Positions 469-5,853 of a stretch of 5,853 bases of DNA are shown here, piece after piece (positions within the stretch are counted from its first letter, which is position 1; each line of letters starts with the position of its first letter). Source of the DNA: a virus; the IMG/VR virus record IMGVR_UViG_3300045988_000869, one strand, 5' to 3'. The translations under genes and the position numbers were made by a program. The notes under the pieces are model-generated. The model was given only the letters and a program-made list of their open reading frames with translations, made no database searches and was not told where the DNA came from.

Positions 469-642
469 TTCAACACTTTCAACACTTTCAACAGGTTTTC
501 AACAAAAAGTTGCACAAAAGGATTTGTGCATATTGCTACACTTTCAACATTTCAACAAGTTATCTACAAAAGTATCAACATTAAAATTAGCCAAAAAATA
601 TCGTTCCAAGGATAAAAATTCATAGTATTCAACATTTCAACA
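469..642. repeat. Iteron-like array of TTCAACA (TGTTGAA on the coding strand)
   Basis: There are eight perfect copies, at 469-475, 478-484, 487-493, 498-504, 543-549, 551-557, 628-634 and 636-642, plus the variant ATCAACA at 574-580. The first three are tandem with 9-nt spacing. The 15-mer TTCAACATTTCAACA occurs twice (543-557 and 628-642), 85 nt apart. Confidence 0.85.
511..530. promoter_or_regulatory. Perfect 20-bp palindrome or hairpin, operator-like
   Basis: TGCACAAA (511-518), AGGA loop, TTTGTGCA (523-530): 8-bp arms with a 4-nt spacer. It sits between two clusters of the TTCAACA array. Confidence 0.5.
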
Positions 643-2811: not shown

Positions 2812-4524
2812 TTAGTGATGATCTACGAGACCCGGAATGCTGTACATGGGCATAGGTCTCACAGATGTATTGTCTATGACGGTATCCATGATAAACTGCG
2901 GCTCGTTGTCCATGGCCAGAGTTCTCTGAATCTCGGAATCTCCTTCCTTCATCCATGCCTGGCTCAGGTTCGGAACCTCTTTGTAGTTGTCGCCGTAGTG
3001 CCAGCTGTCCAACGTCCCCGTTGCGTTCGACCTGAACTTGCCGCTGATGCGGTTTGGTTTCATTCGGTACTCTGCCCATGCTTCCTGATAGCCGAAAGCC
3101 TGTTCATCAGTGCTTGTGCCAGTGAGATACAGCTCCTTTTTAAGGATGGCCTGCTCGCCCAGATTCGCGAACACCGGATAGTAAAAGTCCAGATTAGTTT
3201 TACGACTCCACATGCGCTCCAAGCCCTGCTGGTAGGTATGGTCGTGTCGGATGCAGCATACACCGATAACATAGCCGTGCTCTTCAAAGCTCTTCGTGAA
3301 CATACTGCCGTTGTACGGTGTAACACTGATTGCTGCCGCGTTGCCCTGAGGACTTTCTTGCGTCGTTCCGCTGGTTTGGATGACTTGACTCATGTTGATA
3401 GTGATGCGCGTGCCACCCAGATACTCAGGAATTTGTACCGTCTTATCGCTGATTTTCGTATGGAACAGCGAGTAAACCATCTCGCGGTAACGACTGCCGC
3501 CTCGTGCCAGCTGTTCGTAATATTTTTGCACCTGAAATGCCTGTCGCAGCTGATTGATGGTTGCGGCTGTTACATTTGATAAGTCAGCTCCCAAGGTTAC
3601 GCCTGTATACGTTTGGCTTGTTTCGATTCCGATCGCAAGGCCTTTGTCTCTTACAGGGCCCGAGCCTATGTCCCATGTGTTTGCGTTGAATGTGCTTCCA
3701 TTTGTTGTTATTCCTGCCTCTGCCAGAATTTCTTTCATTTTTTGGCTGTTAATGGTTACGTTTCCGCTACTGGTGTTGTACATTCCTAGAGGTGCGCTTC
3801 CAGTTATTGGCAATTTGACCGCTGGTCCCTTCTGCGGACTCGGCAATGCGCTGGTAAAGTAGTCGTGGTATTTGTTTACAGGTAGAGGTCTGCCGCCGGT
3901 GTGTGCTTGGTTGAGAATGTATTGGAGGTCGGGCGTTTTTCCGTCCATTCCTTTTTCTTCATTGTCTGTGTAGTTTATTAATCCGTCTCCTTTGTAGTTG
4001 ATAGCCGGATTGTCTATGTTTTGATCTCGGAACCACTCCTGCCAAATCATGGCGTATGCCCGGAACGGCAGTGCGTTAATGCTGAATTCCGTATCTGGTC
4101 CCTTGCTCACCTTGGTAGGAATGCCCATGTAATCCATGATGCTTCCTTCGTACGGTGCTGGTTTGTCGGCTGTGCCGGTGATTTTGATTTGCGGAATGGT
4201 GTATTCTTGAGTCTGTACCCATGGCCCTTTATCGTTTTCGCCCATGAAGCGTTTGAAGTTGTCCCAGATGATACGATTAGGCGTGTAGAAATAGTAAATA
4301 TCCATATGACAGTTGTCCATAACCGGGAAGATAGGCGTAGTCATACGGATAATTGCGGCCTGGTCGATGCTGAAGGTATCACCCGGGAGCACTTCGTCCA
4401 CGTAGAACGGAATGAGCTGGCCTGCGTTCATTGTCAGCTTGACATCTTGCCGCCGTTTGAAGCGACTTCGCGTAATGTCCAGTCGCGGAACTTGGTTAAA
4501 CCCTGCGTCTTTGTTCCTGTTCAT
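2812..4524 (-). CDS. VP1: VP1 major capsid protein (Microviridae F-type jelly roll)
   Basis: 570-aa ORF with AGGAGG (4540..4535) 10 nt upstream of the ATG. Conserved microvirus blocks are visible: RSRFKRRQDVKLTMNAGQLIPFYVDEVLPGDTF, DYFTSALPSPQKG and ATINQLRQAFQVQKYYEQLARGGSRYRE. The start overlaps the VP3 stop as ATGA. Confidence 0.95.
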   Translation of the reverse strand: MNRNKDAGFNQVPRLDITRSRFKRRQDVKLTMNAGQLIPFYVDEVLPGDTFSIDQAAIIRMTTPIFPVMDNCHMDIYYFYTPNRIIWDNFKRFMGENDKGPWVQTQEYTIPQIKITGTADKPAPYEGSIMDYMGIPTKVSKGPDTEFSINALPFRAYAMIWQEWFRDQNIDNPAINYKGDGLINYTDNEEKGMDGKTPDLQYILNQAHTGGRPLPVNKYHDYFTSALPSPQKGPAVKLPITGSAPLGMYNTSSGNVTINSQKMKEILAEAGITTNGSTFNANTWDIGSGPVRDKGLAIGIETSQTYTGVTLGADLSNVTAATINQLRQAFQVQKYYEQLARGGSRYREMVYSLFHTKISDKTVQIPEYLGGTRITINMSQVIQTSGTTQESPQGNAAAISVTPYNGSMFTKSFEEHGYVIGVCCIRHDHTYQQGLERMWSRKTNLDFYYPVFANLGEQAILKKELYLTGTSTDEQAFGYQEAWAEYRMKPNRISGKFRSNATGTLDSWHYGDNYKEVPNLSQAWMKEGDSEIQRTLAMDNEPQFIMDTVIDNTSVRPMPMYSIPGLVDHH

Positions 4525-5754: not shown

Positions 5755-5853
5755 AGAGTAGTTCACCTCTTTCATAATGTTATTTTGTAAAAATGGAATT
5801 TGTTAAATGTACTTCTGTGCTGCTTGACTGCCTTTAGTATATAAAAAAAAAAG
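5755..5853. repeat. Terminal redundancy, copy B (identical to 1-99)
   Basis: See copy A. It contains the -10 (5836-5841) of P1 but not the -35, which lies at 105-110 beyond the repeat. Confidence 0.95.

Follow-up and report, generated by a model that had tools for sequence, protein, structure and literature searches.

The 5,853-nt DNA of IMG/VR virus record IMGVR_UViG_3300045988_000869 (the window, by which we mean the whole stretch that was analysed) carries a dense array of the heptamer TTCAACA, and sequence comparisons lead us to consider it likely that this array supplies the DnaA boxes of a basal unwinding module resembling oriC (467-692), which copies the dnaA-dnaN design of Oscillospirales/Clostridia together with the box variant peculiar to that lineage. 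The window represents a whole gokushovirus genome, a circle of 5754 nt, plus a terminal redundancy of 99 nt; the direct repeat at 1-99 and 5755-5853 identifies the contig as a complete circle with an assembly overlap. Every gene is encoded on the - strand, and the sole long non-coding region (344-801) contains the array. Textbooks use the Microviridae to illustrate rolling-circle replication from one initiator-specific origin, and an oriC-type module in such a single-stranded DNA phage suggests an unexpected replication strategy.

An earlier note on this DNA had drawn attention to repeats at 469-642, which prove to be only the upstream part of the larger module reaching ~692. The eight perfect copies that it counted are all present, starting on the + strand at 469, 478, 487, 498, 543, 551, 628 and 636, at the start-to-start spacings that it gave (9, 9 and 11, then 8, then 8); the 15-mer TTCAACATTTCAACA is indeed duplicated (543-557 and 628-642, 85 nt apart), and the one variant mentioned is ATCAACA at 574-580. 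A count of TTCAACA/TGTTGAA over both strands of the whole genome gave 0 copies outside 469-642, consistent with the remark that the motif had not been noticed elsewhere. Nor is it equally frequent in shuffled sequence: across 200 dinucleotide-preserving shuffles of the whole window the mean was 1.09 copies and the maximum 4, with none of the 200 reaching 8. Variants of TTCAACA with one mismatch were not enriched genome-wide (29 observed against 22.4 expected), so the signal is the exact, clustered motif.

Aligning the related arrays showed that the heptamer is the core of a 9-mer, TTTTC(A/C)ACA, and across about 70 related genomes units of the TTCAACA type are replaced at homologous slots by TTTTCCACA or by TTATCCACA, the universal DnaA box. 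Among 598 box cores from 73 arrays, the variable base of TTCNACA was A in 529, C in 66, T in 3 and G in 0, and the only common alternative core in the arrays is the canonical DnaA core TTCCACA. Read in this way, the window holds ten 9-mer boxes on the same strand, starting at 467, 476, 485, 496, 541, 549, 560, 572, 626 and 634, and the predicted module is made up as follows.

467-504, + strand: DnaA-box cluster 1, with boxes at 467-475 (TTTTCAACA), 476-484 (CTTTCAACA), 485-493 (CTTTCAACA) and 496-504 (TTTTCAACA)
508-533, both strands: inverted box pair with the canonical CACA core, AGTTGCACA at 508-516 (+ strand) and ATATGCACA at 525-533 (- strand)
541-580, + strand: DnaA-box cluster 2, with boxes at 541-549 (CTTTCAACA), 549-557 (ATTTCAACA), 560-568 (TTATCTACA) and 572-580 (GTATCAACA)
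626-642, + strand: proximal box pair beside the putative unwinding element, TATTCAACA at 626-634 and ATTTCAACA at 634-642
643-646, + strand: GC-cluster spacer CTCC, 4 nt
647-661, - strand: DnaA-trio array reading 3'-GAT GAT GAT GCT GAT-5' (CTACTACTACGACTA on the + strand, CTA CTA CTA CGA CTA)
662-668, + strand: CAACAAG extension, nearly invariant in the phage modules
669-692: AT-rich element, a 24-nt stretch of A and T only (the longest A/T run of the genome) and candidate DNA unwinding element

The boxes of cluster 1 all point to the AT-rich element, and the fourth slot of this cluster is often TTTTCCACA in relatives. Slot 560-568 of cluster 2 is TTATCCACA in most relatives, from which the window's TTATCTACA differs by 1 mismatch. 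The two inverted boxes form a palindrome, TGCACAAA-AGGA-TTTGTGCA at 511-530, with a hairpin z-score of -4.9; other clades retain the forward GTTGCACAA and have a different palindrome, TTCGTCATTTTGACGAA, at the same spot. We observed that a palindrome always lies between clusters 1 and 2 (505-535 in the window), its form depending on the clade (TGCACAAA-N4-TTTGTGCA or TTCGTCATTTTGACGAA), and that relatives have a second, variable hairpin between clusters 2 and 3, for example ACGCTTTAGCGT. Downstream of the boxes, the distance from the last box to the first CTA measures 4 nt in almost every one of 66 modules. (CTA)3 is found once in the genome, the + strand of 647-661 has the TnnT motifs of the DnaD recognition element, and the A/T run falls in the stretches of lowest stability in the genome, whether taken over 25 bp (667-692) or 40 bp (651-691).

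Binding by another host protein, for example Spo0A or a response regulator of direct repeats, would give the array a quite different role, coupling the phage to sporulation or stress. TGTTGAA is one base off the Spo0A 0A box, TGTCGAA, head-to-tail repeats at ~8-11 bp are suitable for a response regulator, and sporulation is common in Clostridia. An array of 0A boxes was nevertheless rejected, with TTCGACA found in 0 of the 598 cores of the 73 arrays and in 0 of the three host origin regions described below; the alternative base is always the DnaA one, and such a protein would leave the trios and the AT tract unexplained. We regard this explanation as extremely unlikely.

To place the array among bacterial sequences, we drew on one scan of bacterial genomes for three close copies of TTCAACA, which returned at least 120 matches, so that the number of origins with TTTTCAACA boxes given here, like their taxonomic range, is a lower bound. 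Most of these matches are unrelated coding repeats (59 lie inside open reading frames of at least 150 aa), but at least three are arrays in dnaA-dnaN intergenic regions, namely L277 (Oscillospiraceae), L314 (Ruminococcus sp.) and L325 (Clostridiales RUG098), in each of which Pfam and BLAST verified the flanking DnaA and DnaN. TTCAACA occurs 12, 23 and 9 times in the intergenic regions of L277, L314 and L325 respectively, compared with 2, 7 and 4 times in the surrounding ~7 kb. The copies in host origins are mixed with TTCCACA boxes, in both orientations, and TTTTCAACA is the dominant box of all three origins; the L325 origin region has no canonical TTWTNCACA box. The host arrays end in box-box, a GC spacer, CTACTACTAC(TA) and AT-rich DNA, which is the layout and polarity of the window; in L277 the end of the array is TTTTCAACAGTTTCAACA-CCCC-CTACTACTACTACTA-AACATATATAC.

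The DnaA proteins encoded beside these arrays differ in the recognition helix, which reads DHSTIVY in L277, L314 and L325 as against DHTTVIH in B. subtilis and Aquifex (canonical DHTTV(I/L)H). The changes correspond to T435S and H439Y in E. coli numbering, and T435 and H439 are two of the six base-specific residues of DnaA, conserved in Firmicutes and E. coli (PMC7561715). The DHSTIVY helix suggests a DnaA lineage with altered DnaA-box specificity, for which TTTTCAACA would be the box. The phage hosts are probably Oscillospirales/Clostridia, and an independent prediction, from CRISPR spacers, assigns gut gokushoviruses to Clostridiales (PMC10159846). As a separate observation, four Oscillospiraceae/Ruminococcaceae loci from metagenome-assembled genomes (L255, L279, L296 and L309) have non-coding clusters of TTTTCAACA/TGTGGAAAA that lie outside dnaA-dnaN in the stretch examined; these could be second origin halves, DnaA-regulated promoters or origins of mobile elements.

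Published rules for finding a basal unwinding system (BUS) ask for a box with at most 2 mismatches from the standard or species motif, a spacer no longer than 16 bp and three trios or more (PMC8287927). In the window, the box at 634-642 (ATTTCAACA) is within this limit for the lineage motif only, having 1 mismatch to TTTTCAACA and 3 to TTATCCACA. It is followed by the spacer CTCC at 643-646, and a GC-rich spacer of 4-5 bp after the proximal box is typical of bacterial origins (PMC8235120). The trios (3'-NAN-5', with consensus 3'-GAT-5') then run with the polarity seen in the three dnaA-dnaN origins, in B. subtilis, where the equivalent strand of the origin reads 5'-CTACTATTACTTCTACTA-3' (PMC10201434), and in C. 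difficile, where 5'-CACCTACTACTATTACTACTATGA-3' comes after three boxes and before the unwinding element (PMC7561715). Finally, the unstable AT-rich stretch at 669-692 comes after the trios. The locus, on the other hand, is not that of a chromosomal oriC, the element lying between VP4 and an open reading frame of 65 aa and not beside dnaA or dnaN. On these sequence-level tests, with the box of the lineage as motif, the element passes as a BUS; it is not a chromosomal origin.

The earlier note had proposed looking for the motif in the intergenic regions of other microviruses, and it is present there, in both IMG/VR contigs and GenBank records. Two pattern scans of IMG/VR together with GenBank searches supplied the relatives: 74 IMG/VR contigs of 4-7 kb with an array of at least four copies, 2 of which are unrelated repeats, and 44 GenBank records from several laboratories. 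The carriers, all faecal Microviridae/Gokushovirinae, come from humans, monkeys, pigs, dogs, mink and raccoons; in none of them is the region annotated. The module is borne by at least 64 IMG/VR contigs, many of which show terminal repeats and are thus complete circles. Locus L211 and the giant-virus locus L141 were set aside as coding repeats, not modules, and we found no similar DNA among PLSDB plasmids. As the earlier note had supposed, the feature appears not to have been described for Microviridae: the open-access literature gave no link of DnaA boxes, oriC or DnaA-trios to Microviridae or gokushoviruses, and occurrences of the bare motif in papers were primers only.

The repeats might instead be functionless, as AT-rich non-coding DNA gains repeats easily, or the module might be an assembly artefact that joined a host origin to a phage contig. 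Against this stand the shuffled sequences, none of which reached eight copies, box cores that are more conserved than the spacers, and the presence of the module in 44 GenBank records and at least 64 IMG/VR contigs, many of the latter complete circles. We consider both to be effectively refuted.

Conservation within the module is uneven. Identity to the window across 66 distinct modules is 0.90 for the box cores, 0.66 for the DNA between boxes and 0.96 for the trios plus CAACAAG; for whole modules, identity by global alignment has a noise floor of ~0.73-0.75 and is meaningful only well above it, as it is for the module (0.80-0.96). Boxes are oriented forward in 549 cases and in reverse in 6, at spacings of 8, 9, 11 or 12 nt. 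This pattern bears on the idea that host DnaA binds the boxes for regulation, either in a sink like E. coli datA, in which the multicopy replicative form drains DnaA and stalls host initiation, or through DnaA control of nearby promoters, which would tie phage expression to the growth state of the host. At least 10 clustered boxes would serve such a purpose, the other strand has a perfect sigma-70 promoter at a distance of ~110 nt from the first box, and B. subtilis is established to have clusters of DnaA boxes away from oriC that act in titration and transcription (PMC3245932). However, a sink or an operator needs no spacer, no trios of correct polarity and no AT tract, yet these are the most conserved parts (0.96), at a fixed spacing of 4 nt, and the cassette is inverted or relocated relative to promoters and genes in some relatives (arrangements B and C below). 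A purely regulatory role therefore seems unlikely to us.

The module also occurs in different arrangements and with different genes. In arrangement A, that of the window, the AT-rich end adjoins VP4 at its 3' end and the genes run on the opposite strand; in arrangement B the module immediately precedes the VP4 start and is on the coding strand; and in arrangement C the gene order is as in A but the box-trio cassette of ~210 bp is inverted in place. The inverted L199 and L010 are colinear with L018, L030 and L048 except at 998-1206 of the rotated genomes. Since its orientation to the genes and to the packaged strand is not fixed, we take the cassette to be a self-contained duplex element. The same flipping among A, B and C speaks against a role in single-stranded DNA in which the trio strand would be the packaged strand, and we rejected that idea. 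That VP4 nicks at CAACAAG or in the AT tract was likewise unsupported, the orientation to the coding strand being variable and no phiX-like origin being present. In line with the earlier note's remark that the array is unlike the phiX174 origin, the ~30-nt core of that origin (CAACTTGATATTAATAAC) is unmatched in the window at up to 3 mismatches on either strand.

Carriers share from 40 to 100% amino acid identity with the window in VP1 and from 35 to 100% in VP4. The modules of L007, L019 and L023 share 94-96% identity with that of the window, against only 43% for VP4, and several GenBank genomes (H9-H18) match the window in the module region only. From these comparisons, the putative origin cassette is exchanged between phage lineages and does not track VP4. 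The module is also found in a 39-kb tailed-phage gut contig (L072, IMGVR_UViG_3300045988_134603) that encodes Dit and a minor tail protein: at ~1800-1990, beside the tail genes, eleven TTCAACA boxes are followed by GCCCC, TACTACTA and an AT-rich tract. The module is thus not restricted to microviruses, and it is likewise present in L261, a contig labelled Anaerolineae. We also noted a 68-kb viral contig (L088, IMGVR_UViG_2531839741_000003) with 35 copies of TTCAACA/TGTTGAA in both orientations over ~1 kb (1180-2210), mixed with TTTTCCACA and arranged in higher-order repeats of ~105 nt, which may be the origin of a prophage or phage-plasmid.

These observations speak against classical iterons, repeats to which a protein of the phage (VP4, VP5 or the 65-aa protein) would bind so as to mark the phage's own origin or to autoregulate. 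Tandem direct repeats do adjoin VP4, the VP5 family (phrog_1670) is annotated as DNA-binding, and CAACAAG is both invariant and phage-specific. But there is no co-variation with VP4, as the near-identical cassettes beside divergent VP4 genes illustrate; most carriers lack the 65-aa open reading frame; chromosomal origins and a tailed phage, none of which has these proteins, show identical boxes in an identical layout; and the unit is 9 bp, interchangeable with the universal DnaA box. We judge iterons of this kind to be very unlikely. Of the earlier note's proposal that the array is a set of binding sites for a plasmid or phage initiator or regulator, one half holds, in that the sites are non-random and are predicted to bind a replication initiator. 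The other half, a binder encoded by the phage or a plasmid such as VP4 or the 65-aa protein, is not favoured, because the motif is kept where VP4 is only 35-43% identical, alternates with the DnaA box and fills Clostridia origins that have no VP4.

If the array is indeed the DnaA-box part of an unwinding module, then host ATP-DnaA would bind the boxes on the double-stranded replicative form, oligomerise from the proximal pair onto the trio strand and melt 647-692. The + strand sequence TACTACT would supply TnnT motifs for DnaD, and host loaders (DnaD/DnaB/DnaI in Firmicutes) would place the replicative helicase and primase, so that the host machinery would prime or replicate the phage duplex alongside the rolling-circle synthesis driven by VP4. 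Possible outcomes are priming of the complementary strand during multiplication of the replicative form, theta-type amplification, or plasmid-like carriage. A stronger proposal is that the module is a second origin driven by the host initiator, with the replicative form firing with DnaA like an oriC minichromosome and the mobile, invertible cassette being traded between phage lineages and shared with tailed phages. We regard this as doubtful; if true, theta amplification in Clostridia, or stable carriage there in the manner of a plasmid, would be possible with no integrase, and this could explain the long-term gut persistence and abundance of microviruses.

Several points weigh against an oriC-like unwinding module. 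Microviridae are thought to need only their rolling-circle initiator together with elongation and primosome factors of the host, which leaves no obvious benefit for a DnaA origin, and a module of boxes plus trios is lacking in the classical phiMH2K, Chp2 and SpV4. The proximal boxes differ from the E. coli consensus TTATCCACA by 3 mismatches and are 8 bp apart with an overlap of 1 nt, compared with 9 bp in the host origins; the fourth trio, GCT, is without the central A; and the phage-specific CAACAAG that follows the trios is absent from host origins. Additionally, the status of TTTTCAACA as a DnaA box is drawn from its location, its mixing with canonical boxes and the altered helix-turn-helix, and the host origins number at least three among the matches listed, all of them metagenome-assembled genomes whose taxa are the labels of the records.

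Were the oriC-like reading true, a large and abundant clade of gokushoviruses of the mammalian gut would plug into the chromosomal initiation machinery of its hosts. The module would then offer a sequence-based host call for uncultured phages, pointing to bacteria with TTTTCAACA-box origins and a DHSTIVY DnaA (Oscillospirales/Clostridia), with which the CRISPR predictions agree. It would also present a natural variant of DnaA-box specificity, with T435S and H439Y as the candidate changes, and a compact, naturally minimised origin of ~230 bp that is suited to direct testing in vitro. The exchange and inversion of putative origin cassettes among phages bears further on how origins evolve.

The surroundings of the module in the window contain the following features.

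332-359, - strand: perfect sigma-70-type promoter (TTGACA, 16-nt spacer, TGxTATAAT) upstream of the 65-aa open reading frame
386-447: GC-rich flank 1, GTCATGC...GCATGAC with an inner GGCGC-GGT-GCGCC, which accompanies the cassette in some relatives
693-735: GC-rich flank 2, alternating purine-pyrimidine runs, CATGCGCGTGTGTGCGCG ... ACGTGCGCGCGCGTGCATGC
750-792 (region 750-800), - strand: strong hairpin directly after the VP4 stop, z-score -8.0
802-1821, - strand: VP4 rolling-circle replication initiator (phrog_942, E-value 1.8e-112), adjoining the AT-rich end of the module
1822-2670, - strand: VP2
2812-4524, - strand: VP1

VP3, VP5 and small open reading frames are also on the - strand. The 65-aa open reading frame (304-107, - strand) has no family match. 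The two runs of flank 2, CATGCGCGTGTGTGCGCG and ACGTGCGCGCGCGTGCATGC, are 18 and 20 nt long, perfectly alternating and prone to form Z-DNA. The position of this flank is conserved in relatives, and in genomes with an inverted cassette it lies on the other side of the boxes; relatives have similar GC-rich blocks beside the cassette, and the breakpoints of the in-place inversions adjoin them. Folding of flanks 1 and 2 was no better than that of shuffles. A direct repeat, AATGTCATGCGC at 383-394 and AATATCATGCGC at 688-699, brackets the whole module, and GenBank records MT135258 and MG945391 match the window only at ~380-730; the repeats AATGTCATGCGC/AATATCATGCGC may be the boundaries of the exchanged cassette.

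The hairpin after VP4 has the form GGTGTCA-stem-loop-stem-TGTTTTT on the coding strand, and its loop reads ACTTGATA on the + strand, which we take to be the nick-site core of phiX174. GGTGTCA and the hairpin stay beside VP4, after its stop in arrangement A and before its start in arrangement B. The hairpin looks like a terminator, and it may be either that or the VP4 origin. Elsewhere, the intergenic region between VP1 and VP2 (2672-2760) has a GC-rich hairpin at 2679-2701, and a second hairpin formed by a 13-nt tandem repeat, TCAGCTGAGGCTC, in three copies (2713-2751). A search of Rfam gave no relevant family in the module; its sole weak match (anti-hemB, at 2672-2748) was below the gathering score and is probably due to chance.

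Among known systems, E. coli datA and the DnaA-box clusters of B. subtilis (PMC3245932) resemble the phage array in being box clusters outside the chromosomal origin. They titrate or inactivate DnaA, and they are not known to have trios and an unwinding element in origin polarity.

The iteron replicons (pSC101, R6K, F and P1 oriR, and those of the Rep proteins of geminiviruses and circular Rep-encoding single-stranded DNA (CRESS) viruses) likewise have direct repeats near a replication gene that are initiator sites. Several iteron plasmids also have accessory DnaA boxes. Iterons, however, bind the Rep of their own element, vary together with it and mostly measure 17-22 bp, whereas the unit of the phage module is a 9-bp host DnaA box that does not track VP4 and is part of a complete unwinding module of the host type: the same boxes accompany VP4 proteins of 35-100% identity and recur in chromosomes and a tailed phage.

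The PriA-dependent primosome assembly site of phiX174 and the A-site of the DnaA-dependent 'ABC primosome' of R6K are hairpins that act in single-stranded DNA. They share with the module the principle of a cis element in a small replicon that recruits the helicase-loading and priming functions of the host without a phage loader, but the phage array, built of direct repeats, requires a duplex, and the strand on which it lies varies with respect to the packaged one.

The closest likeness is to the BUS of bacterial oriC, reportedly the work of Richardson in 2016 and 2019 and also treated by Pelliciari in 2021 (PMC8287927). As in B. subtilis incC, with its DnaA-boxes 6/7, a tandem box pair leads into a 4-nt GC spacer, at least three trios on the opposite strand and an AT-rich tract, with further boxes upstream. 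The phage module differs in sitting on a 5.7-kb single-stranded DNA phage genome with nearly all boxes in one orientation, in the 8-bp separation of its proximal pair, in its phage-specific CAACAAG, and in being invertible and exchanged between lineages; the design of the L277, L314 and L325 dnaA-dnaN origins is essentially identical to that of the phage module.

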